A stretch of 20,315 nt of DNA from Candidatus Hodarchaeota archaeon (GCA_016840035.1 JAEOTC010000091.1:1-20315), one strand, 5' to 3'; shown: positions 2 through 19,279, numbered from the stretch's first letter. The notes: generated from the sequence alone by a model not told the origin. Translations and numbers: made by a program.

Positions 2-1798
2 ACAGAAAGCTATTCATTCACATTGTATTATCAAAACACAGTGGATAATGAAGGAATTACCGATGCGACTTATACTACAAATCATTCCTCAGTAATTAAT
101 TTCTGGTATTCTAATTCAAGCGGATATTACTTTTTCAATTTAAGCACGAGTTCCTTAACTTTAGGTTCTCATGGAATCAATATTGCTTTAAATCACACAG
201 TGTATCAAGAGAATTTCATTTTATTGACATTTAACATTGTGGAAATGCCAACACAAATTTTAGATCAACATACTATCAGTAGCAATCAAATAATGGTAGA
301 AGAAACCATAACAGTGACCATTACGGAATTTCTAACTTATAACTCAAATCAAATTACTAGTATTGATGATATTAGTCTTCTCTTGAACGACTCCTTTGTT
401 GATAATAGCTACCTTTCATTCGTCACGAATGCCCCATTTTCAGTTGAACTAGATACCACAGGTATTCAATATGGAAAATACAATCTTTCGGTCATTCTAG
501 AAGTTTATGGATATGAAAACCAAGCAATTTCATTTAATGTTACACTAAATGGATATGAAACAGAAATAAGTGTCGAGATTGAGCCGGGAAAGAACATCCA
601 ACAAGGTGAAGATGTTATTTTCATTGCCACTTTAGTGTATGTCTCTGGAGGTGGAACTGGGGCTGAAGTTACTCAACAGGTTCCCTTAGAAGGGATTGAC
701 ATCACCTTCTTTGTAATAATAGAATACGAGAATGGAACAACTCGGACCTACGATTCAATAAGCCAAACTGATAACTTAAATTATCAAGCTACTTACACAA
801 TCGATGGTATCTTTACCAAAAATGCAATAAAATTCACAAATATTACTATACACTCTGGTTCTACCTTATCAGGATTACCTTATACTTATAGTATGTCAAC
901 CAGCGAATTAGATACCTATCAAATCCTTCCTCCAGTAGTAGATATTTTTGAAGTGATTATAACTGTCTTAACTGTTGTTGTAGTTGTACTAATCGCCCTC
1001 TTTATTGCAGTTACCACTGTTCGTGTATATCGTCGTAGAAGAAGAGTTCATAAGCTCCGAATTCAGAGACAGGATATTGCTGTTGAGCAAAGCTTTGAGG
1101 ATATTAAATCCATTCGACTAATATTAGCTCGACACCAATCTGGTTTGCAATTTTATTCAGAAAAGACAATCGCGGAACTTCAAACCGATACTGATGCCCT
1201 TTCGGGGATGAGTGCTGCATTGTCCTCATTCATGGAAGAGCTTTCTGAAAGTATGTCTTCTCAATCTGAGGAAAAATCAGAGAAAGACAAAATCGAATTT
1301 CTCAGTCGTGAGGGTCTCCACATGCTGATTTGGCATGGATACCACTCAAGTTTTATTATCATATCTGAAACACGCTTACCTGAATACTTCCAGACCCACC
1401 TGAAGGCTCTCGGTCATGAACTCGAACAGAAATACCTTGCTGAATTACAGGACTTCTATAGCAGTGATCAAATTCCAAACACTGTTGTTAAGAAAATGGT
1501 TCGCAAATATATCCCGCTTCATTACTTCTCGGCCTATGTTCTCAATGAAGGTGTTCTCACTCTGGAATCAGTCAAACTTTCTCGGAAATACACCAAAATG
1601 TTTAAAGAAATCAAGAAAGTTATGTTTCATATCGAAGGAGCTCAATACTTCTTCTCTGAACAAATCATTTCACACCTCTCAAAAGACTATAAACGTAGTG
1701 AAGCAATTGAATTCTTGGATCATGCCATCACCATTAATCTTTTGATTGAAGCAGAGCAGAAAGACCTTTTACAGTTAACCCAACAGAAAGGAAATTAA
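2..1798 (+). CDS. Large single-pass membrane protein (5'-truncated): beta-rich extracellular region, TM helix, cytoplasmic longin-like domain and C-terminal helical/wHTH-like region
   Basis: Frame is open from position 2, so the true start lies upstream of the window. N-terminal part is Thr/Ser/Asn/Tyr-rich with alternating beta-strand patterns and many N-x-S/T sequons. Hydrophobic helix IFEVIITVLTVVVVVLIALFIAVTTV (944-1021) is followed by RVYRRRRR (positive-inside). Then FEDIKSIRLILARHQSGLQFYS...DALSGMSAALSSFMEEL, the pattern of Asgard longin-like domains. Confidence 0.8.
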   Translation, partial: TESYSFTLYYQNTVDNEGITDATYTTNHSSVINFWYSNSSGYYFFNLSTSSLTLGSHGINIALNHTVYQENFILLTFNIVEMPTQILDQHTISSNQIMVEETITVTITEFLTYNSNQITSIDDISLLLNDSFVDNSYLSFVTNAPFSVELDTTGIQYGKYNLSVILEVYGYENQAISFNVTLNGYETEISVEIEPGKNIQQGEDVIFIATLVYVSGGGTGAEVTQQVPLEGIDITFFVIIEYENGTTRTYDSISQTDNLNYQATYTIDGIFTKNAIKFTNITIHSGSTLSGLPYTYSMSTSELDTYQILPPVVDIFEVIITVLTVVVVVLIALFIAVTTVRVYRRRRRVHKLRIQRQDIAVEQSFEDIKSIRLILARHQSGLQFYSEKTIAELQTDTDALSGMSAALSSFMEELSESMSSQSEEKSEKDKIEFLSREGLHMLIWHGYHSSFIIISETRLPEYFQTHLKALGHELEQKYLAELQDFYSSDQIPNTVVKKMVRKYIPLHYFSAYVLNEGVLTLESVKLSRKYTKMFKEIKKVMFHIEGAQYFFSEQIISHLSKDYKRSEAIEFLDHAITINLLIEAEQKDLLQLTQQKGN

Positions 1799-1820
1799 AC
1801 ATTCTAGTGAGGATCTTTTC

Positions 1821-2750
1821 ATGGCTGGAAATTATTATCGATTCTGGTTAATAAATGAACAGGGTCTGTATATTATTGACCATAAATATCAGCGTCAGAA
1901 GGTCATTACCAAATCTGATGAGGATAAATTAATAGCTGAGTTATACAATGATCCTCACCTTGAGAGGGATAATACGGCGATCCTTCACAAAAATTTACCT
2001 TCTTATGCTTTCTCTCGTTTGTATTATCAAAAGTACAAGAAAGATCTTTACGTCCTACTTGCCGATGAAATGATAGACACAACAGAAATCGATTTAAAAC
2101 TCCAAACTTATCGCAAAGAGCGTGATACCCAACGTGAGAATTTAATTGGTATTGTTGTGGCAGCTTTTGATGATGCACGTGGACCGAGAGTCGTCTATAG
2201 TCCTGATTTTATTAATGAAGAGACTACTTTGCTGTTAGCAGTCCAAGGACAGACGATATCATACATGGGTAAACTCAATAAATTTCAGGTTGGGTTTAAA
2301 GAACCTTTGAATGTCCCTAATCGCACCGATTTAATTCATGTCAGTTATGACTTTTTAGTTCCCGCTCCGAGTAGTAAAGATCCTAGGATCGCTCTAACAG
2401 GTCGAGTTATGAACTTGTTTTTACTTTTTCCTCGTGATCTACCTTATTTAAAAGAGAAATCCTTCTTGCAGTTTATTGAATCGTTTGTAGATGAATGGGT
2501 TCGGACTTGGATCGATTTTCAAAAAGAGAATGAAGGTAAATATCCAGTAAAAATATTTGACGATCTCTTAGAGAGCTTGAGATCCACAGTCAATCTCGCA
2601 ATCGATCTAGCAACTCACGATGAGCGTGAGATTAGAAAACTTAAAGACTTCGTAATGGAAATCCTAGCCCAGAATCAAGTTTTAACCTTTCAGGTTCAAA
2701 AATTAAAGGAACGGATTAAGGATTTAGAAGCAAAATCAAATCGTGAGTGA
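1821..2750 (+). CDS. Longin + uDENN/NPR2-like domain protein with C-terminal coiled coil
   Basis: 309 aa, 22 bp after upstream stop, GAGGA SD-like motif. N-terminal YRFWLINEQGLYII resembles a longin beta-hairpin. IGIVVAAFDDARGPRVVYSP (from about 2145 to 2204) matches the hydrophobic-F-[DH]-x3-GP-x-V-x3-P start motif of uDENN/NPR2/AVL9/folliculin longin domains. C-terminal heptads LAQNQVLTFQVQKLKERIKDLE. Confidence 0.6.
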   Translation: MAGNYYRFWLINEQGLYIIDHKYQRQKVITKSDEDKLIAELYNDPHLERDNTAILHKNLPSYAFSRLYYQKYKKDLYVLLADEMIDTTEIDLKLQTYRKERDTQRENLIGIVVAAFDDARGPRVVYSPDFINEETTLLLAVQGQTISYMGKLNKFQVGFKEPLNVPNRTDLIHVSYDFLVPAPSSKDPRIALTGRVMNLFLLFPRDLPYLKEKSFLQFIESFVDEWVRTWIDFQKENEGKYPVKIFDDLLESLRSTVNLAIDLATHDEREIRKLKDFVMEILAQNQVLTFQVQKLKERIKDLEAKSNRE

Positions 2751-2880
2751 TATTCTTCTCTCAACATTTCGAGGTGCGATCAAATTTGTCGGATATAGCG
2801 ATTAATGGTTTATATTGGCCGACAATTTAAGTCATGATCCCCTAAATCTAACTTTTTCTTCAAAGGGAACTGTAAAAAGA

Positions 2881-2894
2881 GAAGGGTTATATAT
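2881..2894 (+). promoter_or_regulatory. Putative BRE/TATA promoter for the gelsolin gene
   Basis: Purine-rich (AAAAAGA)GAAGGG immediately followed by TTATATAT (2887-2894); implies a leader of roughly 145 nt. Confidence 0.45.
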
Positions 2895-3063
2895 TGTACG
2901 AACTTAATTCAATAAGATACATAAATAAGTCTGGCTATTGAAGGTTAGATAATTCAAATCGAGTGAAGGGAATTCACTCACTCTTAATCTCTCTTTAGCC
3001 CATGTTAAAATGGAGAATAAAGACATAAATATACTTATTATTCATATTAAAGGTTGATTGTTC

Positions 3064-4311
3064 ATGCGTGTGCTACATGTTCAAGGAAAAAAACTAGTTG
3101 AAACAAACAAAAAGAATGGATCCTATGAATTCTTGAACGGAGACGTCTATATTATTGATAATTCGGATGTTTCCGCAGGCCTCAAGAAAAAGGTATTCAT
3201 ATGGTTAGGATCTCAAGCTTTTGCTGATGATAGAGCAGTAGGTGCTTGGGCTGCAAAGCAACTAGACCTTGCAGATAAAGAAATAGATATCGATACAGAA
3301 GTTGAAGGTAACGAATCTGCAGAGTTTAAAGGCTTATTAGAATTCGTAGTTGTAACAGGAGATACACCTGGCTTCTTAAAACACGTAGAAGTAAATAAAG
3401 AAGATGTAAGCTATGCTCTTTACAGGGTTCGTGATACTGACCTTTCAGATGGATCATCTTCAGATGATATCGTAATCGAGAAGGTACCTTTGGAGCGAGG
3501 CAGTTTTGTCTCTGATGATGTTTTTGTTGTAGATGCTTATCATGATCTATATGTTTGGGTAGGAGCAAGCTCCCAGATTGGTGAAAAGGTTGCAGGAAAT
3601 AGGGTAGCTCGAAAATTAGATGTAGATCGCGATAGAACCCCAATGGTCTATCAAATCGGCGAAGGGTATGAACCTAAAGGCTTTTGGGACCTATTTGACA
3701 AAATCAGTGGAAGTGGATTAACTCGTGAAGATGACTCAGCAAAGATTGGCGCGAGTATGAGTGGCTCTCTTTCTGATTTAACAGCCCCAACTGAACCAGC
3801 TACACCTCCCGTAGAATTAGCTCCTCCTCCATCAAGTAGTTCACCTGGAGAAATCGTTGGTCCTCCAAAAGATGACACTTATGTCCCAAAACCACCAGCC
3901 ATTAAAGATGAACCCGTACCAGAAGTTGCACCTGAACCAGTAGTCGAACCCGAGCCACAACCTGTACAAACTGGTTTTGGAGTCGCTCCTTCAGACCCAG
4001 TTCCATCAAGGCAAACTCAATATACCCTATACTATGTTGACGGTGAATTCTCAGAAGTAGGGGGAAATGAACAGGCGACTCTGGAAATCAATGAATCTAC
4101 AAAAACCGCAGTTCTCACTTTTGCCCAGGGGTCAAGTTTGATTACCCAACGAACTGCTGGACGTCAAGCACGAGGTATCTGTAAAGCAGGTTACGCTGTG
4201 AAAGCTGGATACAGGATCGGTATAAAATGTGATCTACAAGAAGTCAAAGGGGAAGAGGATATGGAATCACGTGTTCAAAGATATCGTGAAGAAGGACGAA
4301 AATACGTCTAA
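3064..4311 (+). CDS. Gelsolin-family actin-regulatory protein (two gelsolin domains, Pro-rich linker, divergent third domain)
   Basis: Domain 1: FLNGDVYIID...VFIWLGSQAFADDRAVGAWAAKQLD...EVEGNESAEF, then linker GFLKHV (cf. gelsolin G1-G2 linker GFKHV). Domain 2: SFVSDDVFVVDAYHDLYVWVGASSQIGEK...IGEGYEPKGFW. ATG at 3064 after AGGTTGA is preferred over TTG 3058. Confidence 0.9.
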   Translation: MRVLHVQGKKLVETNKKNGSYEFLNGDVYIIDNSDVSAGLKKKVFIWLGSQAFADDRAVGAWAAKQLDLADKEIDIDTEVEGNESAEFKGLLEFVVVTGDTPGFLKHVEVNKEDVSYALYRVRDTDLSDGSSSDDIVIEKVPLERGSFVSDDVFVVDAYHDLYVWVGASSQIGEKVAGNRVARKLDVDRDRTPMVYQIGEGYEPKGFWDLFDKISGSGLTREDDSAKIGASMSGSLSDLTAPTEPATPPVELAPPPSSSSPGEIVGPPKDDTYVPKPPAIKDEPVPEVAPEPVVEPEPQPVQTGFGVAPSDPVPSRQTQYTLYYVDGEFSEVGGNEQATLEINESTKTAVLTFAQGSSLITQRTAGRQARGICKAGYAVKAGYRIGIKCDLQEVKGEEDMESRVQRYREEGRKYV

Positions 4312-4372: not shown

Positions 4373-5122
4373 TCAGAATTTTTCCATTGCTTCTTTCAGA
4401 AGAGCTCGAGTTTCTGGACTATACCAGCTATCTACAAAAGATTCAATATGTGATTCAAGTCTAGTCTTGATATGATTTACTTTTGGCATCTTTAGATCAA
4501 GTTTAATTTTCGTAAATGCTAAAGATGGATTTTCAGCTAAGGATAAACACTTTTTTACAGAGTTATCTAATAATCCATCACTAGGAAAGATCTCATGGAC
4601 TATGCCTAATTTTAAAAGTGATTCAGGTAGTAAAAACTCCCCTGTGTATGCAAATTCTTGTGTTTGTTCAGATCCAATCATATTTTCCAAAATGTACAAA
4701 GCAGGATAGGGAATTGGAACACCTAGCTTTATTTCATTTAATCCCATCAATTTTTTTCCTTGTGAAATGTATCTATAGTCACAACAGAGAGCTAGAATAC
4801 ATCCTCCTGCAATAGCATGTCCATTAATTGCTGCAATAACTGGTTTAGGAAATGAATACAAATCAATGCAGAGTTCATTAAAATGGGTATAAAACTGAAT
4901 AAATTCCTCTTTTTTAAGATTATATAAACCGGGAATATTTAATCCAATGGAAAAAAATTTCGTATTTGAACCGGTAAGAATGATCCCTTTTACATTATCA
5001 TCAGCGCTTATCTCACGGAGTTTTTCTCTTAATTCTGAAACCAGCTCTGAAGAAATAGCATTTGTTACTCCGTTATTTAGTTCAATGATTGTAAGATTAT
5101 TCTTAGATTTTATATTTAACAT
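4373..5122 (-). CDS. Enoyl-CoA hydratase/isomerase (crotonase) family protein, probably delta3-delta2-enoyl-CoA isomerase type
   Basis: LNNGVTNAIS, FFSIGLNI, PVIAAINGHAIAGGCILALCCDYR, MGLNEIKLG motifs. Only the second catalytic Glu (LNE) is present. Confidence 0.9.
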   Translation of the reverse strand: MLNIKSKNNLTIIELNNGVTNAISSELVSELREKLREISADDNVKGIILTGSNTKFFSIGLNIPGLYNLKKEEFIQFYTHFNELCIDLYSFPKPVIAAINGHAIAGGCILALCCDYRYISQGKKLMGLNEIKLGVPIPYPALYILENMIGSEQTQEFAYTGEFLLPESLLKLGIVHEIFPSDGLLDNSVKKCLSLAENPSLAFTKIKLDLKMPKVNHIKTRLESHIESFVDSWYSPETRALLKEAMEKF

Positions 5123-5265
5123 TTCTCGTTCCTCTTCTTCCCAAGAATCTTGTGATTTTAAGCCCTACAAAAAGGTAGTTATTTCTGTTCTTGCCGAAAT
5201 TTATTTATTCCCTATAATTAAATCAGTCCTCCTTTCATATAGTATCGCGTATTTAGGTGAATTTC

Positions 5266-6648
5266 ATGCTAACATTCAAAGAAAAAGCAAGTTATGGGAT
5301 AGGTCGACTCGGATCATCAATTACAATAGATATGGCTGATCTCTTTACTGGTTTTGTTTATTATGCTTATTTTGGTTTATCTGAGGATCCCTTTCTTGCT
5401 TTCCTTGGAGTAGCTATTGGAAAATTAGTCATTGCATTTTCAAGCTATCTTTCTGGATATATATCAGATAGAACTAAGACACGATGGGGACGTAGGAAAC
5501 CATTCATCATTATTGGATCACCATTATTAGCCCTCTGTTTTTTTCTACTCTATTCTCCACATATTTTCTTAGCTGGGGTTACTGATTCTGGAATAATCTT
5601 CTCATACTTGCTTATTTTCAATTCCTTGTATCAGGGCCTGTATGGATTCCTCCTTACCCCATTTCAAGCATGGCTTCCTGAGATAACCACAGAAGCAGAA
5701 CGACTGGAGGTCAGTGGCTACCAGAATACAGTTAATCTAATTGCTTTTGTTATAGGCGCAGGGACCTCCTTTTTGATCCCAGCAATCATTGGTGGTTCAT
5801 CGGAAGAATTCTCTCCCTCTGCTTTTCAAGAAGCGAATGATCTTTTACCATCTCTGACTAATGGTATGTTAATCACAGGAATCGTGCTTATATTTGCTCT
5901 TTCTGTTATTATATTCTTTATTCCTTCCCTGAGATTTATTCATGAAAAGGAAGTTTTCATCCCACAACCACCTATTCGTGAAGAGTTAAGTGTTGTTTTT
6001 TCCAATCGAAATTATATAGCCTGGACTTTAGCACGTGGTACTCTCTCAATCATGATCTCAGGTTTACTTGGTATTGTTTTAGCTTGGATCCAAGATGTTC
6101 TTGGGTTTGGAACGATAGATTACCTAATATTTGGTGTTGTTCTGCTCCTAAGTATCTTTACGGGCTACATCTTCTGGACTCGCGTTGGGTCCAACCCAAA
6201 ATATGGAAAAACAAAGAGTTATATCTATTCTATGTTGTATCTTGCATGTATCATGCCTTTAATGATGTTTATTGGTCAAATTGACTTCATTCCTTTTCCT
6301 ATTTTGATTCAAGGGGTGGTGTTTGCTATTCTGGCTGCTGGTGGGTTATCAGCTTACTACTTACTCCCTTATGCAATTGTTGGAGATATTGTTGAGAAAG
6401 ATGAACGTGAGACAGGAGAAAGTCGAGCAGGAATGTATTACGGCTTCGAATCTATTCCTTTAAACGTCTTCCAATTCCTTGGGTATTTACTTATCGGCGC
6501 AATGATTGATTTTCTCCCATCTATCACTAATTCTGCTGGTAGAACATTTTCTCAAGGGTACTTACTATTTGGACCTCTTTCTTCCGTTATTATACTAATC
6601 TCAGTTCTTATTTTTTGGAAATTTGTTAATGCCGATCCTTTACAATAA
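5266..6648 (+). CDS. MFS transporter, glycoside-pentoside-hexuronide (MFS_2/GPH) cation symporter family
   Basis: About 12 hydrophobic segments; GYISDRTKTRWGRRKPF and DIVEKDERETGESRAGMYYG motifs; ATG 5266 preceded by AGGTGA. Confidence 0.9.
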   Translation: MLTFKEKASYGIGRLGSSITIDMADLFTGFVYYAYFGLSEDPFLAFLGVAIGKLVIAFSSYLSGYISDRTKTRWGRRKPFIIIGSPLLALCFFLLYSPHIFLAGVTDSGIIFSYLLIFNSLYQGLYGFLLTPFQAWLPEITTEAERLEVSGYQNTVNLIAFVIGAGTSFLIPAIIGGSSEEFSPSAFQEANDLLPSLTNGMLITGIVLIFALSVIIFFIPSLRFIHEKEVFIPQPPIREELSVVFSNRNYIAWTLARGTLSIMISGLLGIVLAWIQDVLGFGTIDYLIFGVVLLLSIFTGYIFWTRVGSNPKYGKTKSYIYSMLYLACIMPLMMFIGQIDFIPFPILIQGVVFAILAAGGLSAYYLLPYAIVGDIVEKDERETGESRAGMYYGFESIPLNVFQFLGYLLIGAMIDFLPSITNSAGRTFSQGYLLFGPLSSVIILISVLIFWKFVNADPLQ

Positions 6649-6774
6649 TCAGAGGATCCATTTCTCCCTTCTTTTATTCTAAGGAACTGGTAGAAGAAGT
6701 GAACTCCTTTTATTCTGCGAATAAAACGTAAAACAATTTAATTGGTTATTTTCTCGCTAGAATTATCTCGTTTG

Positions 6775-6782
6775 TTTATATA
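6775..6782 (+). promoter_or_regulatory. Putative TATA box of serS
   Basis: TTTATATA about 33 bp upstream of the serS ATG. Confidence 0.5.
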
Positions 6783-6814
6783 AGAGCTATGCGAATCCCC
6801 TAAGGTAATCTGCG

Positions 6815-8086
6815 ATGATTGACATCAAAATTTTTCGTGAAAATCCAGAAATTATTCGTGAATCAGAAAAAAAGAGATTCAAGGATGTTTCACGAGTAGA
6901 TAAAGTGATTAAACTTGATGAACAGTGGCGAAAACTTTTGCAGGAAGTTAATGATCTTCGAAAGGAACGGAACACCATTAGTCGACAGATTGGCCCACTC
7001 AAAAAGAAAGGGGAAGACATTTCTTCTCTCACTAAACGAGTTACTAAAATCAAGAAGGCCATTGCTCAAAAAGAGAATAAAAGTAACAAAATTCTTGAGG
7101 AACGAGATAGTCTTCGTTATGTTATAGGGAATATTCTTCTCCCAGGAGTTCCTATTGCCGAAAATGAGGAAGGAGATGAAACTATTCGGACTTGGGGAAC
7201 GATACCTAAATTCACGTTTCCAATTAAAGGCCATACAAATTTAGTGGAGTCACTTAATGGAGCAGAGCTTAATAAAGCTGCAGAAGTAAGTGGATCAAGA
7301 ACATATTACCTTAAAAATGACCTAGTTTTCTTGAATCTGGCTTTAATTCAATACGCGCTACAGCTACTTTCAGAAAAAGGATTTACTCCGTTCTGGACCC
7401 CTCCTTTCCTTCGAAGGGAGGTTATGGAAGGAGCAAGTGAGTTGGATGACTTTGAAGACCAATTGTATCATGATTCGAAAGAGAATGTTTTCTTTATCGC
7501 AACCTCTGAACAAACCCTAGCCGCCTTACATAAAGATGAATTAATCGATATTGACACCCTTCCGCGAAAATATTGTGGAATCTCCCAATGCTACCGGAGA
7601 GAAGCAGGTTCTCATGGTAAAGATACTAAAGGGATCTTTCGTGTGCATCATTTTGAAAAAGTGGAACAATTCGCTTTCTCACATCCTGAATCATCAGAAG
7701 ACATGCATGAAGAGATGATCCAAAATGCTGAGGTACTTTTTCAAGGTCTAAAGCTTCCTTACCGAATTGTTAACATTGCATCTGGTGAGTTGAATGCCAA
7801 TGCTGCAAAGAAATATGATTTAGAAGCATGGTTTCCTGCCCAAAATGCCTATCGTGAGTTAGTTTCTTGCTCAAATGTTACGGATTATCAGGCAAGAAAA
7901 TTAAATGTTACTACAGGTAAGGCTGGAGGAGAAAAAACCTTCGTACATACCTTAAATTCCACCGCAATCGCCACTGAAAGAACGATATGCGCAATTTTGG
8001 AAAATTATCAACAGGAAGATGGTTCAGTTGTTATTCCAGAGGTTTTACGTCCTTTTATGAATGGAAAAACTTCAATTTCTTTGTAA
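6815..8086 (+). CDS. serS: Serine--tRNA ligase (canonical, archaeal/eukaryotic-like; not the methanogen type)
   Basis: N-terminal coiled-coil arm (MIDIKIFRENPE...), IATSEQ, class II motif 2 YRREAGSHGKDTKGIFRVHHFEKVEQF, KYDLEAWFP, ELVSCSN, motif 3 HTLNSTAIATERTICAILENYQ. Confidence 0.97.
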   Translation: MIDIKIFRENPEIIRESEKKRFKDVSRVDKVIKLDEQWRKLLQEVNDLRKERNTISRQIGPLKKKGEDISSLTKRVTKIKKAIAQKENKSNKILEERDSLRYVIGNILLPGVPIAENEEGDETIRTWGTIPKFTFPIKGHTNLVESLNGAELNKAAEVSGSRTYYLKNDLVFLNLALIQYALQLLSEKGFTPFWTPPFLRREVMEGASELDDFEDQLYHDSKENVFFIATSEQTLAALHKDELIDIDTLPRKYCGISQCYRREAGSHGKDTKGIFRVHHFEKVEQFAFSHPESSEDMHEEMIQNAEVLFQGLKLPYRIVNIASGELNANAAKKYDLEAWFPAQNAYRELVSCSNVTDYQARKLNVTTGKAGGEKTFVHTLNSTAIATERTICAILENYQQEDGSVVIPEVLRPFMNGKTSISL

Positions 8087-8247
8087 AGTGACTCTTCAAC
8101 CAAGAGTTTCTATTCACTAATCCCTTGGTATCACTTTCATGATTAACAGCCTCATCAGCTGAAAAATACTTGTCAATTTGCTAAAAATTGTATCAGAAAG
8201 TCTATTATAGATGATTGAATTATTAATCTCACTAGGTGAGATACAAG

Positions 8248-8571
8248 TTGAGTATTGAGGATTCAGAAGATGAGGCAAAGTTAAAAAATCGTAAGATGCC
8301 TTTAATTACCTCCTTCCCCACTCCTGTTGATCCATGTGAGTTAACTCCTACAGAACAACGAGTTTATCTCCAATTATCACTCGAATTTAGTCTAATCTTA
8401 GATGAAGCTCCCAGTTTTCAGATGGGTGCATATCAGTGGAATTTAGTTCTTCCTAGCCGTTTACAAAAATTTGCTTTAACTACCGAAGCATGGGAAAAAC
8501 TATCATCTCTAGGTGATAGCTCTGAGGAGCTACAAACACAGCTAGCAGATTTAGTGGAACGACATAATTGA
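8248..8571 (+). CDS. Small hypothetical protein
   Basis: Fills the gap between serS and the convergent PAC2 gene. AGGTGA precedes TTG 8248 (alternatives GTG 8236 and a later ATG). No recognisable family. Confidence 0.6.
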   Translation: MSIEDSEDEAKLKNRKMPLITSFPTPVDPCELTPTEQRVYLQLSLEFSLILDEAPSFQMGAYQWNLVLPSRLQKFALTTEAWEKLSSLGDSSEELQTQLADLVERHN

Positions 8572-8587
8572 TTTATTTGTGAATCTA

Positions 8588-9376
8588 TCAGATATAGGTC
8601 TTGTCTGGTTTCCCTATTTGCTTCTCATCATCAACGGCTGCAGTAGCTTGTCCTCTCATCGATAGTGCTAATTGCTCAATCTTTTCTGCTTGAGCTAATA
8701 TTGGCTCGATACCAACACTCAATGATGGAACCAGCTGATTTAATACCTCAATAATTCGGGCAGCGGTTCGAATTTCTGGATAATGCTGTCTAACTTCTCC
8801 TAGAAGAACTATTACCTCAGATTTGTTGAACCACCCCTCATTTAGTAATACAGCACTTAATCCTTTGATTACACCATGATTTAATGGAGGAATTTGTTTA
8901 GAATCGAGAATTGCCCTACATGAATCAGTAGTTCCTACTCCGAATATTTTCATAGGTAATTGCTGGGGTGAATGTGCTTGCTCACTCATGAATCCTTCAA
9001 TAGACACTATTCGACTGATTTCTTTCCTTTTTGCCCAATTAAAGATTTTTCTTCCAATTTCACGTGTTATAGGGGCGTATTGAGGGATTTCTGAGGCTAA
9101 GAGAGCGATCTTCGTATCAGCATTAGTGTTCGCATAAATCCGTATGGGGAACTTAGGCCGATTGAAATAAACCATACATACCGAAGGTAACTGACTGCTA
9201 TCTCCAACAGCTATTTGATCGTAATTCCAATGTTCTGGTCTTCCCCCAGCTTCAAGAATTATGTTTGCTACAATGAGAGCCAAACTACTCGTTGAAGGAA
9301 AACACTCTATTAAGGTTCCTCCAGTAAGATCAATATCAGCAATATCACGTATTTCAAAATCATGAACAGGTTGCAT
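8588..9376 (-). CDS. Proteasome assembly chaperone PAC2 family protein (PbaA/PbaB-like)
   Basis: LIECFPSTSSLALIV (degenerate GFPGxGxVG), PKFPIRIY, LASEIP, ISRIVSIEG, GVIKGLSAVLL, YPEIRTAARII, ILAQAEKIE; ends in TYI. Confidence 0.85.
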   Translation of the reverse strand: MQPVHDFEIRDIADIDLTGGTLIECFPSTSSLALIVANIILEAGGRPEHWNYDQIAVGDSSQLPSVCMVYFNRPKFPIRIYANTNADTKIALLASEIPQYAPITREIGRKIFNWAKRKEISRIVSIEGFMSEQAHSPQQLPMKIFGVGTTDSCRAILDSKQIPPLNHGVIKGLSAVLLNEGWFNKSEVIVLLGEVRQHYPEIRTAARIIEVLNQLVPSLSVGIEPILAQAEKIEQLALSMRGQATAAVDDEKQIGKPDKTYI

Positions 9377-9409
9377 AACTAACCTATTTCACTAATATCC
9401 CTAAAAAGG

Positions 9410-9446
9410 TTTTACTTAAGGAGTAAAAAAAAGAAAAGAGAGGAAA
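9410..9446 (-). terminator. Oligo-T terminator after cdc48 with small hairpin
   Basis: Minus strand reads TTTCCTCTCTTTTCTTTTTTTTACT after the cdc48 stop; TTTTACT(9410-9416)/AGTAAAA(9422-9428) inverted repeat. Confidence 0.5.
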
Positions 9447-9456
9447 TTGTTAGTTG

Positions 9457-12119
<2,663 letters not shown>

Positions 12120-12147
12120 AATATTTCTTCCTTTAGTGTTTAAATAA

Positions 12148-12191
12148 TTTTATTCACATCTAGTATATATATTTATCGAATGTGAATAAAA
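12148..12191. promoter_or_regulatory. 12-bp perfect inverted repeat flanking a TATA-like box (candidate operator of hsp20-cdc48)
   Basis: TTTTATTCACAT (12148-12159), 20-bp spacer CTAGTATATATATTTATCGA, ATGTGAATAAAA (12180-12191). Confidence 0.6.
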
Positions 12192-12478
12192 ATAGAATTA
12201 GCATTTATATCGGAGGTTTTTGTATTTAATACCTTTAAAAATATTTGTTTCCTATTTAAAATATTTTTAGGGAATATAATCAACTAAAAACCATACTTGC
12301 TACTCCATAATAGTATATTTTATCATTAACTTTTGAGGAAATAATTTATTCACACTATTTATCCTCACTTATTTAGTTAATAGGAAAAGATCCCATAAGA
12401 ACGTTTGATAAATTGCAGAAAACTTGAAAAGTTGATGAATGATCCAATTTCAGACTTCCAAAGAAAAGCAATTCAATC

Positions 12479-13558
12479 ATGAATTTATCTTCTAACGAAA
12501 TGAATAAGTTTAGACCGAATAGAGGTTATCTTTTGGCTTCAGAAGACTTGACAAAACGTCCACTCCATTTACGGAAAGATTTCGAACCACTTGTCACCCA
12601 CTTAGAAATTGCATTTGCTACCGAGATTGAAGCCAGGGGGATGGATATCAGAGCTGAGCTACTTAATTATAAAAGAATTCTTCCATTAATTAAAATTTTA
12701 GGATTATTTTCGAAAACTTTTAGATATCCTATGAATGGATTTATCTTTGAGACAAAAGACAAACAAATCGTCGCCTCCGCTAATACTAGTTCCCTCACTA
12801 ACCGTTGGGAAATAGCCATGGTAGCCACACACCCTGATTATAGAAGGATGGGTTTGGCCAGAGAATTAGTAACAGATATTATCAATTTTGTGAAAGATAA
12901 AAAGGGAAAGGTGTGTACTTTAGAAGTAATCGCCGAAAATACTCCTGCTTATAATTTATATATAGATTTAGGGTTTACTCATTATGATAGTATAGCAGAG
13001 ATGAAATTATCTCCAGATAACTGGCCTGAAAATGAAACAATTGCTTTTCCTGATGGCTATTCGAAATTTCCTCTGAAAAGAGACAAAAAGACAAACGATG
13101 ATCGATACAAATTAGTTCGAAAGGCCACACCGAAGAAGGTTCAGGACTTTCTTCCTATTGATAAGAATCGATTTAAAAAATCCAGACTAAAAAATTTGAT
13201 TCGTCCTTTACTCATACGACTTTTTTCACTTAAAGTTAACTCTTGGGTTATCTCCTTCCAAGATGAGTTGGTTGGTACAATTTTTGTTGAAATCGAACAA
13301 TCAGGAAAAAATCCACACAAAATTGAGCTGGTAATTGATCCCGATCATCAAGCTGACATCTCATTAGCGATGATAAGAACCGCTCTCTCAAAAATAAAAA
13401 CCAGTGGCTTAACAGATCAAAATATAATGATTAGTATCAGAAGTACGAACTCTGATCTAATGATGACTTTGAGGAACTTAGGTTTCACAGTTGTCGAGAA
13501 CAATCATAAGCTTGGATTAAAATTTGAGTCGAAAGATTATTCCTATCTCTATTATTAA
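12479..13558 (+). CDS. GNAT family N-acetyltransferase with a second, degenerate GNAT-like domain
   Basis: WEIAMVATHPDYRRMGLAREL (motif A) and LEVIAENTPAYNLYIDLGF (motif B); C-terminal half ends in LRNLGF. Confidence 0.88.
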   Translation: MNLSSNEMNKFRPNRGYLLASEDLTKRPLHLRKDFEPLVTHLEIAFATEIEARGMDIRAELLNYKRILPLIKILGLFSKTFRYPMNGFIFETKDKQIVASANTSSLTNRWEIAMVATHPDYRRMGLARELVTDIINFVKDKKGKVCTLEVIAENTPAYNLYIDLGFTHYDSIAEMKLSPDNWPENETIAFPDGYSKFPLKRDKKTNDDRYKLVRKATPKKVQDFLPIDKNRFKKSRLKNLIRPLLIRLFSLKVNSWVISFQDELVGTIFVEIEQSGKNPHKIELVIDPDHQADISLAMIRTALSKIKTSGLTDQNIMISIRSTNSDLMMTLRNLGFTVVENNHKLGLKFESKDYSYLYY

Positions 13559-13565
13559 TTCGAAT

Positions 13566-14393
13566 CTACCCAATCTCCTTGAGAAATCGTATCCAGTGTT
13601 GTATTGATCTTGTTTTTCTTTCCTTTCGTTCTGAATAGTAATAATCAGGAAATTTAGGATCAGTTTCGATCTCCTCAGAGGTGAAACCTGCTACGAGTTT
13701 ATCCTGAATAAAATCAATGGAGGCTTTAAAAAAATCATTAATTTCCGTTAGATCTTGAATTGTAGCTGTAGGGCCATGCCCACTTATCACAATGTCAGGA
13801 TTTAGATCTATTAGTTCCTCCATCGCTTTTTGCCATTGAATAATATTGCATGATTCATCTGCCCCAAAAGGACCTTCTCTATTGAAAACAAGATCACCCG
13901 CAATTAAAATTTTAGTATCAGCTAACCATAGATAAGTACTCCCAGTGGTGTGTCCATCTACTCGAATTAAGTCTAAGGTTCTTGGACCCTTTAGTTGATA
14001 AGTTTGTTCAAAACAAATGGTTGGTAAAGTGAACTGAAATCCTTCTATCCCATATCCACCATTTTCCCAATCCTCTCGCTCAGCTTGATCTACATTCTCC
14101 CAATACTCTGTTTGAAAATTTTTCATCATATCTTTAGTGCCAGTAGACGCAATTATTGGCACGTCAGAAAAAATTTGATTCCCGAATACGTGATCAGGAT
14201 GATGATGTGTCAATATTAAACCCCCAACCTTAATTTGAAAGTATTCTTCGACCATCTCTCTCCATTCAGCTGCTAATTCCCAATTCAGCATGGAATCAAC
14301 AATAAAGACTTTCTCCCCTAAATTTATGGCAATACTATTCCCGTATCCCACACCAGTCCAAATTATGTTTTCTCCGGCACTTTGATAGTCCAT
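13566..14393 (-). CDS. Metallo-beta-lactamase fold hydrolase (cyclase-like)
   Basis: LTHHHPDHVFGN (HxHxDH), GHTTGS, IAGDLVF, ISGHG. ATG 14393 with upstream GAGGA is preferred over 14426. Confidence 0.9.
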   Translation of the reverse strand: MDYQSAGENIIWTGVGYGNSIAINLGEKVFIVDSMLNWELAAEWREMVEEYFQIKVGGLILTHHHPDHVFGNQIFSDVPIIASTGTKDMMKNFQTEYWENVDQAEREDWENGGYGIEGFQFTLPTICFEQTYQLKGPRTLDLIRVDGHTTGSTYLWLADTKILIAGDLVFNREGPFGADESCNIIQWQKAMEELIDLNPDIVISGHGPTATIQDLTEINDFFKASIDFIQDKLVAGFTSEEIETDPKFPDYYYSERKERKTRSIQHWIRFLKEIG

Positions 14394-14458
14394 TTTCAGT
14401 TTCCTCTTAACGATTCTAATCATCAACTTCTTAAATTAACGTTGATGGCATTAACTTC

Positions 14459-14821
14459 ATGGAACAATTTAATCCTGCTCCAATTAAACCTGAAATCAAT
14501 TTGGATGATCTGAATAAAATTGATATTCGTGTTGGTAAAATCGAAAAAATCGAGGATCTTCCTAAATCTAAGAATATTGTAAAATTGAATGTAAATTTTG
14601 GAGATCACTCAAGAACTATCCTCGCTGGTATTAAACAAGAACGGGAAAACCCAAAAGAAATTGAGGGACAACAAGCGCTTTTTGTGATAAATCTTAAACC
14701 AAGAAAAATGATGGGAGAGGTTTCTGAAGGAATGTTATTTGATATCGGCTACTCAGACAAAATTACACCTGTATTAGCAATACCTGAAAAGCTAGTTCCG
14801 AACGGTACAAGAGCAGAATAA
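14459..14821 (+). CDS. Stand-alone tRNA-binding OB-fold protein (Trbp111/CsaA/EMAPII-like)
   Basis: IDIRVGKIEKIED, VNFGD..RTILAG, VINLKPRKMMGEVSEGML, VPNG motifs. Confidence 0.9.
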   Translation: MEQFNPAPIKPEINLDDLNKIDIRVGKIEKIEDLPKSKNIVKLNVNFGDHSRTILAGIKQERENPKEIEGQQALFVINLKPRKMMGEVSEGMLFDIGYSDKITPVLAIPEKLVPNGTRAE

Positions 14822-14857
14822 GAATTTGGTTGATCAAATAGGATGTTCAGAATCTTT

Positions 14858-14891
14858 TGATTTCTTTCGAATACCAAAGAAATCACTTTTT
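14858..14891 (+). terminator. Hairpin plus T-run terminator-like element
   Basis: TGATTTCTTT (14858-14867), 8-nt loop, AAAGAAATCA (14876-14885), followed by CTTTTT. Confidence 0.55.
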
Positions 14892-15012
14892 ATTCAATCT
14901 TTTTGAGTGATAAGTAATTTTGAAGCCTTTAAATTAAATCAATGATTTTCACATTAATACATAGTAGGGCTCGAAATTTTTACACTATATTTGACTGAAA
15001 AGGAGAATTTAA

Positions 15013-16335
15013 ATGGAAAAAACAACCTCTTCTATTAGAATTATCTCAGAGATATATAGAAACATCAATAAGACGTGGAATAGATTAATCGAACCATCAT
15101 CTACTTTAATAGACTCTGAGGATCAACGAAAATCTCGATTGATTTCATCTCTCATACTTATAGCTATAATAATTTTCTTAGTCTATATTGTTTCATTTTT
15201 ACTTTTTGATGCTTATGTTTTGAGAACCGAATTTACTGGAGAAGTGTTTTTGTATGTGATTAGTGATTCAATATCACTTATCATCCTAATTATCACATTA
15301 TTCGTTAGTAAAACCAAATATTATAACACTAGTTCATTAATATTTCTTATCACTTGTATAGGAATTTTGATATTTAATATTCTCGTTGAGGATGAAATAA
15401 TATTCCAAATAATTTTCATTCTTGCCTTATTTACATTTTTAATAATCTTTACAAGCTTAATGTATTCAACACGGACATTAGTGGTAGGTTTTTTTGTATA
15501 TTTAATGTTATTCCTAATAATTACCACAATTGTCAAACCACAAGATGGTAATGTCATACTTCTTTTAGCAAGTGTTTTTACTTTTCAATTCCTCCTAACT
15601 ATTGTCCAGAATCATCATTATTATCGACGAGTGGCAGAACTTGAAGTGGCTATTACTGAGAAGAAATTCGCTAAGGATCATTCAGATTTTTTAAACTCTC
15701 TTCTTACTCATGATATGGCTAATAAAATTACTAGAGTCAACGGATACTTATATTTGATGAGTAAAACGGAATTAGAAAGTGAAAAAGAGAATTATCTGGA
15801 ACGAACCGTTGCTACATGTAAAGAGGGTACAGATCTAATAAATAAAATTAATCACCTTCGGGATATTGAGGAATCAACTGATTTAGCAAACCAGAAAGTT
15901 AACCTTAGTTCAGTATTAGCACAAGTCGTAAATCTATACCAGGATCATGCATCTACTAATGGAATCAAAATTATTCTTAATGAACAAGAAGAAGACATTT
16001 CTGTTTCAGGAGGAGAGCTCCTCAAGGAACTATTTTCTAACCTCATAGAAAATTCCATTCACCATTCATCTGGAAGCTTGCTCAAAATTTCTCTTAATAA
16101 ATCACCAAAAATAATATCTGTTACTATTGAAGATAATGGAGTTGGGATTCCTGAAACTGTTTCTAAAAACCTGTTTAAAAGAGGAATTAAAGGAGAAAAA
16201 TCAAAAGGATCTGGAATTGGACTTTTCCTTGTAAAATCAATAGCTGAAAACCTTAACGTAAATATCTTAGTTGGAGAATCCTCGTTAGGAGGAGCTAAGT
16301 TTGTCCTTGAATTTAAACAGTTTAAGGCATTATAA
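15013..16335 (+). CDS. Membrane-bound sensor histidine kinase (orphan)
   Basis: About 6 TM segments in the N-terminal half; H-box LLTHDMANKIT, N-box LFSNLIENSIHH, G1 IEDNGVGIP, F-box LFKRG, G2 GSGIGLFLV; AGGAGA SD. Confidence 0.92.
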   Translation: MEKTTSSIRIISEIYRNINKTWNRLIEPSSTLIDSEDQRKSRLISSLILIAIIIFLVYIVSFLLFDAYVLRTEFTGEVFLYVISDSISLIILIITLFVSKTKYYNTSSLIFLITCIGILIFNILVEDEIIFQIIFILALFTFLIIFTSLMYSTRTLVVGFFVYLMLFLIITTIVKPQDGNVILLLASVFTFQFLLTIVQNHHYYRRVAELEVAITEKKFAKDHSDFLNSLLTHDMANKITRVNGYLYLMSKTELESEKENYLERTVATCKEGTDLINKINHLRDIEESTDLANQKVNLSSVLAQVVNLYQDHASTNGIKIILNEQEEDISVSGGELLKELFSNLIENSIHHSSGSLLKISLNKSPKIISVTIEDNGVGIPETVSKNLFKRGIKGEKSKGSGIGLFLVKSIAENLNVNILVGESSLGGAKFVLEFKQFKAL

Positions 16336-16516
16336 AAGAAAAATGAATCCTCTTCTGTGAAGAATTATAAGTTTTCTCAATTCTTTGGATGTCTGATAAA
16401 CAAACAGTTAAAAATGTATTGTTTCGGAGCTTTTGAAAACCGCTAATTACTTTTCTCTGCTTTCCTTTGATTACCGAGTACGAATTAGTTTTATCCAGAT
16501 TTTAAAAGTGATACCT

Positions 16517-17419
16517 GTGAGTAAACCATCACTGACTTCATATGGAGCAATGACCATTGCGATTCTTGGGTGGGGATTATCATCCAGTTTCATTGAGTTT
16601 GGCCTAGATTTTGTTAGTCCTCTTCCTTTTTTATTTTATCGATTCGGACTTGCTACCATTACTTTAACTCCACTGGTTGTCATTTTCCGTACTTCAGAAT
16701 TTCTTCAATTGATAAAAAATAAATGGACTTGGGTTATTGGTATTTCCGAAGCTACTGGATTAACTTTACAATATTTAGGCCAAGAACGTGAAGTAATGGC
16801 AGGATTAGCGGCACTATTATCCTTAAGTTTTATAGTCATTGTGCCATTTATTTCTCCCTTTATAGTAAATGAGAAATTGGAAAAAAATCATGTAATAGCT
16901 ATGTCTATTGCATTTATTGGTGTAGTCTTTATTTCAAGCGAGGGAGATTTGAATAATTTGACAGGTAGTTCTATCTTAGGGATAATCTTACTACTTGGTG
17001 CGGCTGTTGGCTATGCATTTTATATTATATCGACCTCAAGATTAACAACTATAGAAAAACCAAATGTAGATACATTTACTTTATTTTACTCGGTCTTATT
17101 GATTATTACACTTTCTAGTCTTGTAGCAACCATTTCATTCAGTCCAATTGGTGCGGTTCCTACCGAGGGAATTCAATGGATTGTGTTACTCACGATATTT
17201 TCCACCCTAATCGCGTTTTTTACATATTTCAGAGCATTACAAGAAATTTCCGCCAATGTAGCTTCAGTATTATTGCCTTTACAAGTTCTTGTTCCATTTA
17301 TCATTGATTTTTTTATTCTCGATAGAACATACTCATTATGGATTCTTACTGGTTCCTCTCTAATTATTTTTGCAATGGTGATTGTTGTTATCCAACCATA
17401 TCTTGAAGGCTCTTCATAA
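16517..17419 (+). CDS. EamA/DMT family transporter
   Basis: AILGWGLS...SPLPFLFYRF, AGLAALL, IVNEKL; second repeat GIILLLGAAVGYAFY...YFRALQEISANVASV; about 10 TM. Start probably GTG 16517 (the ORF extends to 16433). Confidence 0.88.
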   Translation: MSKPSLTSYGAMTIAILGWGLSSSFIEFGLDFVSPLPFLFYRFGLATITLTPLVVIFRTSEFLQLIKNKWTWVIGISEATGLTLQYLGQEREVMAGLAALLSLSFIVIVPFISPFIVNEKLEKNHVIAMSIAFIGVVFISSEGDLNNLTGSSILGIILLLGAAVGYAFYIISTSRLTTIEKPNVDTFTLFYSVLLIITLSSLVATISFSPIGAVPTEGIQWIVLLTIFSTLIAFFTYFRALQEISANVASVLLPLQVLVPFIIDFFILDRTYSLWILTGSSLIIFAMVIVVIQPYLEGSS

Positions 17420-17438
17420 GAAGTTCAGCACCCTTTTT

Positions 17439-17915
17439 TCAGGATAAACTCTGTCTAATACTATCTGCTAACATAATATTTCGTTTCAGCCATATAGGAA
17501 TACTGGAATGATTTATTACTTCTTCAATTGTCATCCAATACACTTTAGCTACTTCATCAGGGCTTTTACAATATGCTCTTCCAGATTTATATTTACACAA
17601 GAATACAATATCAACAACAGGTTCTTCAACAGCGAAAAAAAGACTACTGTTCACGTACGTCATTTCTTCTTCAACCTCAATTCCCACTTCCTCATAGATT
17701 TCCCTAATTAGTGTCTTTTCAAGAATATCGCTCTCCTCCTCCATTTTATCAACTTTACCCCCCACAAAGGATATGAAACCTCCTCCGTATTTTTCTTTTT
17801 CGCTTCTCTTAATTAATAACCATTTTTCTTCTTTGAATATTGCTGCTTCAACATTCATAATGTAACAAATGGGAGAGGGTTCTTGATTTTTAGAGTTCAT
17901 AACGTTTCTCACCAT
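17439..17915 (-). CDS. NUDIX hydrolase
   Basis: Nudix box GGKVDKMEEESDILEKTLIREIYEEVGI (with short insertion); WLLIKRS. Confidence 0.9.
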   Translation of the reverse strand: MVRNVMNSKNQEPSPICYIMNVEAAIFKEEKWLLIKRSEKEKYGGGFISFVGGKVDKMEEESDILEKTLIREIYEEVGIEVEEEMTYVNSSLFFAVEEPVVDIVFLCKYKSGRAYCKSPDEVAKVYWMTIEEVINHSSIPIWLKRNIMLADSIRQSLS

Positions 17916-17962
17916 TAGAAAGTAGATATAATAAGAATCAACCAGTCTATATGCTTATTCAC

Positions 17963-19084
17963 CTAATTTTTTTCTAAGACTATTCTGACTATGTCTGCAT
18001 CTTGTAAAATGTGCCTTAAGCCTACTTTTTGGCCAGGGAACTTCGCTGACCTTCCCCAGACATTAGCAAAACGAAAATCATTCTTAAACCGACGATGAAG
18101 CTTCATACATATATCTTCGACGGTGGAATTTCTTGAAACAATCATTGGATCATCTAGATCGGCTTTTTCACCTGGTTTACGAAGATATACTCGCATAAGT
18201 CCAACTTTCTCAACAATAGTCTCCTTTAACTCGTCTAATCCTTCTCCTAATTCAGCTGAAATTGGGACGATTTTTCTACCAATTTGTTTTTCAAGACGAG
18301 GTAATTCTTCTTCACTTACCAAATCCATTTTGTTAACTACTATCAATGAGGGAATATATCGTCGATTATCAGCTACAACATCAATAATTTGATCAATTGT
18401 CAGATTAGGATCATTTGGAAGGTACACATCAGCATTCAGAATACGATAGGTACGAAATATATTAGCAATTTCCTCATCGGATAACCCATATCTGAATCCA
18501 GAAATATTTATACCTCCAAAATTGCGCTTAATAACCTTAATTCGAGAAGCTTTTTGATCTAGTCGAATATTTGCTTTCCATAACTCATCCAAAATCTTAG
18601 TAAGATGATCAGGACGTCGAACGTCCAATAAAATTACGATAAGATTAGCATTTCTAACTGCAGCGAATACTTCACGACCTCGTCCTTTTCCTGATGCTCC
18701 ACCTTCAATAATTCCTGGTAAATCGATAATTTGAATTCGGGCGCCTTTGAATTTTCCATCATATTCCATCATCCCAGGAATAGCATCAAGGGTTGTAAAA
18801 TCATATGCTGCGATCTTGCTTTCTTTATTAGTGATTGCACTGAGCAAAGTAGACTTTCCTACTGATGGGAAACCGAGGAGGATGACTGTGGCATCTCCAT
18901 GTTTTCTAATTGAAAATCCTGAGCCTTTTCTTTTTGATTTCATCGCTCGATCGACGAGTTCGGATCGAAGTTGAGCAATTTGAGCTTTAAGTGTTCCAAA
19001 ATGTGCCTGAGTTGCTTTATTGTATTGCATTTTAGCCAGTTCTGCTTCTTTTTCTGCTATACGCTCTTCAATTTTCTCAGACAT
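17963..19084 (-). CDS. drg: DRG/Rbg family GTPase (OBG superfamily) with C-terminal TGS domain
   Basis: YNKATQAHFGTLKAQIAQL, G1 GFPSVGKST, G2 YDFTTL, G3 DLPGIIEG, G4 NKMD, G5 ISA, TGS VWGRSAKFPGQKVGLRHILQDADIV. Confidence 0.96.
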   Translation of the reverse strand: MSEKIEERIAEKEAELAKMQYNKATQAHFGTLKAQIAQLRSELVDRAMKSKRKGSGFSIRKHGDATVILLGFPSVGKSTLLSAITNKESKIAAYDFTTLDAIPGMMEYDGKFKGARIQIIDLPGIIEGGASGKGRGREVFAAVRNANLIVILLDVRRPDHLTKILDELWKANIRLDQKASRIKVIKRNFGGINISGFRYGLSDEEIANIFRTYRILNADVYLPNDPNLTIDQIIDVVADNRRYIPSLIVVNKMDLVSEEELPRLEKQIGRKIVPISAELGEGLDELKETIVEKVGLMRVYLRKPGEKADLDDPMIVSRNSTVEDICMKLHRRFKNDFRFANVWGRSAKFPGQKVGLRHILQDADIVRIVLEKN

Positions 19085-19271
19085 CAGAAAATCAGCACGA
19101 ATTTACTAAATTAGCTTTATTGGATTGGAAACTTGAGCTAGGAGTGAAATCAATCCAATACTTACCTATCAAGTATTTTTTAGTTGGATTTAATGAAACT
19201 TTCACTAGACTTCAAGATGGTCGTAAAAGAATGAGAAGATAATTTATTGGGTCAGTTCCTTTTTACTTTGG

Positions 19272-19279
19272 ATTTATAA
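19272..19279 (-). promoter_or_regulatory. Putative TATA box for drg
   Basis: Minus strand TTATAAAT, about 190 bp upstream of the ATG. Confidence 0.35.

Follow-up and report, generated by a model that had tools for sequence, protein, structure and literature searches.

A predicted surface glycoprotein with a longin tail and an adjoining GP-longin in Hodarchaeales: a candidate membrane-anchored GTPase regulatory module next to a gelsolin gene

The window analyzed here, positions 1 to 20,315 of contig C35 (G000:C35:1-20315; GCA_016840035.1, JAEOTC010000091.1), belongs to a Hodarchaeales (Heimdallarchaeia) bin of 4.3 Mb that is 87% complete with 4% contamination. Three open reading frames (ORFs), all on the plus strand, span positions 2 to 4311: ORF1, the C-terminal part of a predicted surface glycoprotein; ORF2, a soluble protein with two predicted longin-superfamily domains; and a gelsolin gene. 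A first-pass annotation, made from the sequence alone, had described them as three consecutive co-oriented genes, with ORF2 beginning 22 bp after ORF1. This layout is confirmed, and a GAGG motif precedes the ORF2 ATG by 9 nt.

The ORF1 surface protein and its cytoplasmic tail

Full-length relatives of ORF1 are 1398 to 1547 amino acids (aa) long, and the window copy runs off the contig start. The encoded part contains one strong hydrophobic helix (residues 318-336, hydropathy 3.36) followed by RRRRR; most full-length relatives have an extra N-terminal signal/anchor segment and a transmembrane (TM) helix about 260 residues from the C terminus, again followed by an arginine run. The ectodomain of P0046, a relative 88% identical to ORF1, holds 44 N-x-S/T sequons versus 20.3 +/- 3.8 in shuffled sequences, with 0 to 1 sequons in the tail, and Lys plus Arg make up 3% of this ectodomain versus 13% of the tail. 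Residues 1-315 of ORF1 are also sequon-rich, at 1.6% Lys/Arg. TM topology, sequon excess, and low ectodomain Lys/Arg thus form the signature of a large type-I N-glycosylated surface protein, in line with the earlier description of ORF1 as a single-pass, receptor-like protein with a sequon-rich ectodomain. Identity to relatives is 28-81% in the ectodomain (28-44% in more distant homologues) versus 51-92% in the tail, where mean column identity over 29 homologues reaches 68%. Pfam and NCBIfam returned nothing significant for ORF1, and its full-length relatives likewise lack a Pfam family.

An AlphaFold2 (AF2) model of the tail, built on the 29-homologue alignment (predicted local distance difference test score [pLDDT], 77; predicted template modeling score [pTM], 0.72), runs from a stalk helix leaving the membrane through a beta-beta-alpha-beta-beta-beta-alpha-alpha domain to a helix/strand domain. 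When compared with structure representatives (VIA, which provided all Z scores given here), the tail matched synbindin/TRAPPC4 at Z 12.7 (root mean square deviation [rmsd], 3.7; 127 residues aligned), Sec22b at Z 11.5 (rmsd, 3.2; 121 aligned), VAMP7 at Z 10.7, a CPLANE subunit at Z 10.4, adaptin sigma/mu subunits at Z 9-10, and SRX at Z 8.6-8.8, with roadblock proteins reaching Z 7-8 at most. Foldseek aligned it to the Sec22b N-domain with a template modeling score of 0.70. No Pfam Longin, Sybindin, Sedlin, or similar family was found in the tail at an E value of ≤1, and an ORF1-tail HMMER profile searched against PDB sequences returned chance matches alone. The model and its matches to synbindin, Sec22b, and VAMP7 bear out the longin-like cytoplasmic domain proposed at first pass, and the ORF1 tail is predicted to carry a longin domain. 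Its last ~85 residues match a sub-domain of TbtB (Z 9.1; 82 aligned; rmsd, 2.5) and may tentatively be modeled as a winged-helix-like sub-domain.

This longin domain shares its fold and helix/strand order with the longins of TRAPPC4/synbindin, Sec22b, VAMP7, Ykt6, and SRalpha (SRX). Like the SNARE longins, it would face the cytoplasm on a membrane-anchored protein. Unlike them, it lies C-terminal to the TM helix of a protein with a >1000-residue, presumably glycosylated ectodomain, rather than N-terminal to a tail anchor, and ORF1 has no SNARE motif. Each genome of the clade holds three to five tail-bearing genes, whose products range in length from 1460 to 6884 aa; the giant open frames among them, which reach 6884 aa, end in ORF1-type longin tails (e.g., G214:C5:1499-2209). 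A tail profile search matched Heimdallarchaeia alone (families f1, f4, and f7), with 0 matches in the ~220 other Asgard genomes sampled.

ORF2 and the GP-longin superfamily

The ORF2 model (pLDDT, 82; pTM, 0.71) consists of two domains with the order beta-beta-alpha-beta-beta-beta-alpha, a pair of packing helices, and a long helix at the C terminus; nothing significant was found for ORF2 in Pfam or NCBIfam. Domain 1 (residues 1-106) matches the VAMP7 longin (Z 10.8), MP1 (Z 9.9), and a Streptomyces roadblock protein (Z 9.6), which are tied. The best match of domain 2 (residues 107-265) is the Lokiarchaeota Roadblock-Longin 8yqg (Z 13.7; rmsd, 3.3; 149 aligned), followed by Lst4 (Z 12.6; rmsd, 3.2; 134 aligned), C9orf72-SMCR8 (Z 11.1), FNIP2/FLCN (Z 10.5 and 10.2), GATOR1 (Z 10.4), and the SEA complex (Z 9.7), and its longin fold is nearest to the FLCN/SMCR8/C9orf72/NPRL2-type group. 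The terminal helix is a leucine zipper in which Leu almost invariably occupies the d positions (274, 281, 288, 295, and 302), with Ile/Val at the a positions and Asn285 at the central one (29/31 members). In GCN4-type zippers, an Asn placed centrally at an a position typically marks parallel dimers, and ORF2 is probably dimerized through this segment. Predicted structure, fold matches, and zipper heptads all agree with the two longin-type modules and coiled coil noted earlier for ORF2. The accompanying label "longin-DENN" stands for its longin (uDENN-like) part and falls for the DENN core: only two helices and the zipper follow the longin, Pfam DENN is not found, and a DENND1A match (Z 8.5) covers residues 1-105 alone.

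A 2025 survey described a GP motif at the start of longin strand 2 that is specific to the longins of the GTPase-activating protein (GAP) type, FLCN, NPRL2, SMCR8, and C9orf72, is missing from FNIP2, NPRL3, adaptins, TRAPP, and DENND proteins, and recurs together with an arginine finger in one class of Heimdallarchaeial longins (PMC12290439). The ORF2 model places F116-D117-x3-G121-P122 between strands 110-117 and 121-126, with the spacing of W33-D34...G38-P39 in C9orf72 (PMC12290439). Among the 31 members of the ORF2 family, F, D, and G are conserved in 31, P in 27, and both R189 (in S-x-D-x-R-I) and R195 (in G-R) in 31. A profile run against 1.8 billion representative proteins yielded 71 relatives. 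Of these, the 58 with at least 200 residues were used: 57 retain GP, 55 R189, and 52 R195. This retention places ORF2 in a well-defined GP-longin superfamily, which the ORF2 profile found in Heimdallarchaeia alone among 301 Asgard genomes sampled.

A paralogous 346-aa GP-longin on contig C188 of the same genome (L005:1480-3314) is arranged tail-to-tail with a gene of the Gtr1/RagA GTPase family (Pfam E value, 8.6e-27), with 9 bp between the two. The arrangement recurs in a second Hodarchaeales genome (L028:4001-5920), the longins being 339-346 aa long and the gaps 4-9 bp. This RagA-adjacent paralogue fits a GTPase-related role for the superfamily.

Domain 2 of ORF2 has the same fold as the eukaryotic longin GAP complexes FLCN-FNIP, GATOR1 NPRL2-NPRL3, and C9orf72-SMCR8 (Z 10-12.6). 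It shares the GP motif with eukaryotic GAP longins and the Heimdallarchaeial GP longins of PMC12290439 and the F/W-D-x3-G-P spacing with C9orf72, and it carries conserved arginines. Unlike eukaryotic GAP longins, ORF2 has no DENN or C-terminal domain and no sequence-level match to them. Two different longin proteins encoded together recall the eukaryotic heterodimeric pairs; here, by contrast, a giant type-I membrane glycoprotein would supply the partner longin as its tail, one that is more TRAPP/SNARE-like. The Lokiarchaeota Roadblock-Longin (8yqg, longin dimer; 8yqk, roadblock) has the same order as ORF2, a small roadblock/longin-type domain and then a ~160-residue longin, whereas ORF2 adds the zipper and shows no detectable sequence similarity to it. 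A search of one literature library found no publication on that structure or on longin-tailed receptors.

Linkage of ORF1, ORF2, and the gelsolin gene

A 22-nt spacer with GAGG leaves no room for a separate promoter and favors cotranscription; ORF1 and ORF2 most likely form one transcription unit. They show the operon hallmarks of a common strand, a short spacer with a ribosome-binding site, and conserved adjacency. Full-length ORF2 homologues of the window's clade occur once per genome, and in 16/16 genomes with assembled upstream sequence the gene immediately before ORF2 encodes an ORF1-type tail, with spacers of 18-50 nt in most relatives' loci. The synteny check suggested by the first-pass annotation thus returns a tight and conserved adjacency within the clade.

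A second ORF1-ORF2-gelsolin locus (L002, G000:C258:1-3224) is not taken as a duplication and is probably from a co-binned relative, since its ORF2 is only 54% identical to that of the window and falls in another subclade, other genomes have one full-length copy, and the bin carries 4% contamination. A 162-aa ORF after the C211 paralogue of ORF1 is unrelated to ORF2 and was rejected as its counterpart. The joint absence of all three genes from G130, G175, and G217 is uninformative, since these genomes lack SerRS as well or their contig is truncated. Distant relatives of ORF2 occupy varied surroundings: P0087 (L021:3127-6866) follows genes for phosphatidylserine decarboxylase and CDP-alcohol phosphatidyltransferase and precedes an M50 peptidase, a setting that might connect it with membrane lipids in another lineage, and another relative sits after ABC transporter genes.

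The third gene matches Pfam Gelsolin in two stretches (E value, 1.6e-22), and over residues 3-219 it is homologous to 7whf_G, a Heimdallarchaeota 2DGel of known structure (E value, 2e-85), so that its first-pass identification as a gelsolin stands. Translation likely starts at ATG 3064, where homologues begin (MRVLHVQGK...), and not at TTG 3058. The gene is preceded by a 313-nt AT-rich spacer, room enough for a promoter of its own, and by gaps of 118-301 nt in relatives; the caveat raised at the outset, that a gap of about 310 bp and a probable separate promoter might make its linkage positional only, therefore holds. Gelsolin follows ORF2 in every contiguous locus. An apparent 145-kb separation of the two in G241 (L026 and L027; G241:C1) is an artefact, because this "single-contig" assembly consists of short contigs joined by 100-N spacers. 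The gene product is likely a separately transcribed actin regulator of the 2DGel type. Like the Asgard 2DGel (7whf), it has two repeats, to which it adds a Pro-rich linker and a ~93-residue domain of GTPase-operon type.

Over its full length, this last domain aligns with a 93-aa protein that the genome also encodes on its own (36% identity; E value, 5e-13). Behind the gene for that protein come, at a distance of 12 bp, a Ras-family GTPase gene (Pfam Ras E value, 6.3e-40) and then a metallophosphoesterase gene (L035:2545-3985, G000:C57). The same order with short spacers is found in 9/9 genomes (G000 and eight others, L036-L043), and all 33 longer proteins carrying the domain are Hodarchaeales gelsolins. 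A PDB profile search found no sequence similarity between the domain and any solved protein, and the idea that it is a cryptic third gelsolin repeat was unsupported by hhalign (probability, 0.1) and by PDB profiles. Fusion to gelsolin on the one hand and an operon with a Ras-like GTPase on the other predict that a small GTPase is a partner of the gelsolin or takes part in its regulation; such a link would be the gelsolin's own and not specific to ORF1 or ORF2.

The coordinates of all features are collected in Table 1. Downstream, positions 4373-19853 of the window encode an enoyl-CoA hydratase, an MFS transporter, SerRS, PAC2, Cdc48, Hsp20, and a GNAT acetyltransferase, together with a metallo-beta-lactamase fold, a tRNA-binding domain, a histidine-kinase ATPase, EamA, NUDIX, a DRG-type GTPase, and an SSB-like OB fold. 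Beyond Hsp20, some relatives (L013:20011-20912; L014:13200-14512) have an Arf/Ras-like GTPase and a metallophosphoesterase at the place where the window has the GNAT gene (12479-13558); this GTPase has no clear orthologue in G000 (best identity, 35-43%).

Table 1. Features of ORF1, ORF2, and the gelsolin gene, in window positions
Feature	Position	Strand	Basis
ORF1, C-terminal 598 aa of a ~1400-1530-aa predicted type-I surface glycoprotein, cut by the contig start	2..1798	+	Lengths of relatives, topology
Membrane-proximal part of the ectodomain (residues 1-315)	2..946	+	Sequons, composition, divergence; no Pfam family
TM helix (residues 318-336) and polybasic RRRRR stop-transfer	953..1045	+	Hydropathy 3.36
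Predicted cytoplasmic longin domain (ORF1 residues 370-509)	1109..1528	+	AF2 model, structural matches
Helical/winged-helix-like C-terminal domain of the tail (ORF1 residues 505-592), tentative	1514..1777	+	AF2 model, fold match
ORF1-ORF2 spacer, 22 nt, GAGG 9 nt before ATG	1799..1820	+	
ORF2, 309-aa soluble protein, two predicted longin-superfamily domains and zipper	1821..2750	+	
ORF2 N-terminal longin/roadblock-superfamily domain (residues 1-106)	1821..2138	+	Model, fold matches
ORF2 GAP-type longin domain (residues 107-265)	2139..2615	+	Fold matches
GP motif F116-D117-D-A-R-G121-P122 before longin strand 2	2166..2186	+	Family conservation
R189...R195 before the last long strand, candidate arginine finger	2385..2405	+	Family conservation
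Leucine zipper (ORF2 residues 271-308)	2631..2744	+	Heptads; long helix in model
AT-rich spacer, 313 nt, separate promoter likely	2751..3063	+	
Gelsolin gene, 415 aa from ATG 3064	3064..4311	+	
Two gelsolin repeats (2DGel core)	3064..3714	+	Match to 7whf_G; Pfam Gelsolin
Pro/Glu/Val-rich linker of gelsolin	3730..4026	+	Sequence
Gelsolin C-terminal ~93-aa domain, copy of a standalone GTPase-operon protein	4027..4308	+	Sequence alignment

A putative membrane-anchored GTPase regulator and its alternatives

We read ORF1-ORF2 as a membrane-anchored regulatory module for small GTPases, made of a longin and a GAP-type longin, and hold the chances of this reading to be about even. The variable ectodomain of ORF1 would face outward, and the conserved tail would hold the longin and the winged-helix-like domain directly under the membrane. 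There it might recruit or pair with cytosolic ORF2, much as longins pair in FLCN-FNIP, NPRL2-NPRL3, and C9orf72-SMCR8, and the pair could turn off a Ras/Arf/Rag-like GTPase at the cell surface or act as its scaffold. The client would be one of the many such GTPases that the genome encodes at unlinked sites. Gelsolin, in turn, may respond to a small GTPase through its C-terminal domain. Gene structure, predicted folds, motifs, and synteny are the observations from which we infer binding, GAP activity, a client GTPase, and an effect on actin.

Several observations weigh against this reading. A family scan of the window's genes found no small GTPase gene within its 20,315 nt, and at least 32 Ras/Arf/Rag-like small-GTPase candidates are encoded elsewhere in the genome. 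Each genome has a second close ORF1 paralogue, plus several distant ones, with no adjoining ORF2, and by Pfam no longin or GTPase was found among the neighbors of the other tail paralogues. Distant full-length relatives of ORF2 (E values, 1e-22 to 1e-34) lie among unrelated genes, adjoining neither ORF1 nor gelsolin; the pairing of ORF1 with ORF2 thus appears tight but young and confined to one clade. By hhalign, the longins of ORF1 and ORF2 have no mutual sequence similarity. R189 and R195 are both candidates for the arginine finger, if either serves as one. HMMER profiles of ORF2 and of the wider GP-longins retrieved no FLCN, NPRL2, SMCR8, C9orf72, or 8yqg from the PDB, the matches being those of chance (haemagglutinin HA2 and coiled coils). 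Pfam Folliculin/NPR2 was likewise not found in ORF2, and a single Folliculin match (E value, 0.13) appeared among 51 superfamily members. Since sequence methods make neither connection, the link between GP-longins and eukaryotic GAP longins rests on fold and motif. Finally, MFS, SerRS, PAC2, Cdc48, and Hsp20 beyond gelsolin are equally syntenic and in the same order in the clade, so that the adjacency of gelsolin carries little weight. A prediction of the complex between the ORF1 tail and ORF2 from family alignments scored 0.00, with controls not run, and gives no verdict either way.

The first-pass proposal went further and linked the cell surface to actin. In the fuller form considered here, the ORF1 tail would anchor ORF2, the pair would control a GTPase acting on the C-terminal domain of gelsolin, and surface events would remodel actin. 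We consider this three-gene relay unlikely. The genes are contiguous wherever the sequence is, and a GTPase-related feature in each of them (longin tail, GP-longin, and GTPase-linked gelsolin domain) raises the plausibility of the relay somewhat above what position by itself gives. However, gelsolin has its own 313-nt upstream region and is a neighbor in a syntenic block that goes on with housekeeping genes, distant ORF2 relatives have no gelsolin nearby, the module holds no GTPase, and GTPase binding by a domain that matches no solved protein is a prediction only. The claimed surface-to-actin link is therefore weak, its added plausibility coming from the GTPase-linked C-terminal domain. Its most specific version, in which the glycoprotein tail and the zipper-dimerized GP-longin make up a membrane-bound GAP and the same class of GTPase docks on the gelsolin C-terminal domain, would be the most doubtful of the proposals considered here.

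Longin domains also serve in sorting, anchoring, and turnover, as in the SNAREs Sec22b, VAMP7, and Ykt6 and in SRalpha. ORF1 might then be a structural or adhesive surface-coat glycoprotein whose longin tail serves its own traffic, and ORF2 an independent GTPase regulator that is simply coexpressed, an account that seems rather unlikely. It would explain why the tail's best fold matches are SNARE/TRAPP longins and adaptin sigma/mu rather than GAP longins, and it suits a fast-evolving, sequon-rich ectodomain and three to five tail paralogues per genome that mostly lack an ORF2 neighbor; it is at odds with the tight spacing, with the strict placement of ORF2 beside a single specific paralogue throughout the clade, and with a tail conserved far above the needs of a simple anchor. 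Inherited gene order, with no functional coupling and with ORF2 acting as a zipper homodimer on a Rag- or Arf-like GTPase encoded elsewhere, is distinctly improbable in our judgment. In its favor are a zipper of dimeric type, the Lokiarchaeota longin structure 8yqg, whose title describes a homodimer, a paralogous GP-longin that adjoins a RagA-like GTPase, and synteny over all 12 kb of the block within the clade. Against it stand the 18-50-nt spacers of most loci, which, with a ribosome-binding site and no room for a promoter, point to cotranscription of ORF2 with ORF1.

Among prokaryotes, roadblock proteins and GTPases form modules such as MglA-MglB and the Streptomyces conservons, the latter consisting of a membrane sensor, a roadblock protein, and a Ras-like GTPase. 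The ORF1-ORF2 module would likewise combine a membrane protein with roadblock/longin-superfamily proteins presumed to act on a small GTPase. Unlike those systems, it includes no GTPase gene, its longin is fused to the membrane protein, and its soluble partner is a GAP-type longin like those of eukaryotes.

Asgard archaea are known to possess eukaryote-like components such as longin/roadblock proteins, small GTPases, and gelsolins, whose wiring to each other and to the membrane is largely unknown. Asgard GTPases and their candidate regulators are rarely operon-linked, so that partners are hard to assign (PMC10933270). This locus offers two pairings, that of a receptor-borne longin with a GAP-type longin and that of gelsolin with a domain otherwise found in a GTPase operon. 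The present analysis adds the clade-restricted distribution, the zipper, the GP-longin paralogue beside a RagA-like GTPase, the checks for artefacts, and the tracing of the gelsolin C-terminal domain to a GTPase operon. If either pairing is true, membrane-anchored control of GTPases, and possibly GTPase control of actin, would predate eukaryotes. Should the whole receptor-GTPase-actin relay prove true, it would be a prokaryotic forerunner of eukaryotic receptor-GTPase-cytoskeleton signaling in the lineage closest to eukaryotes.

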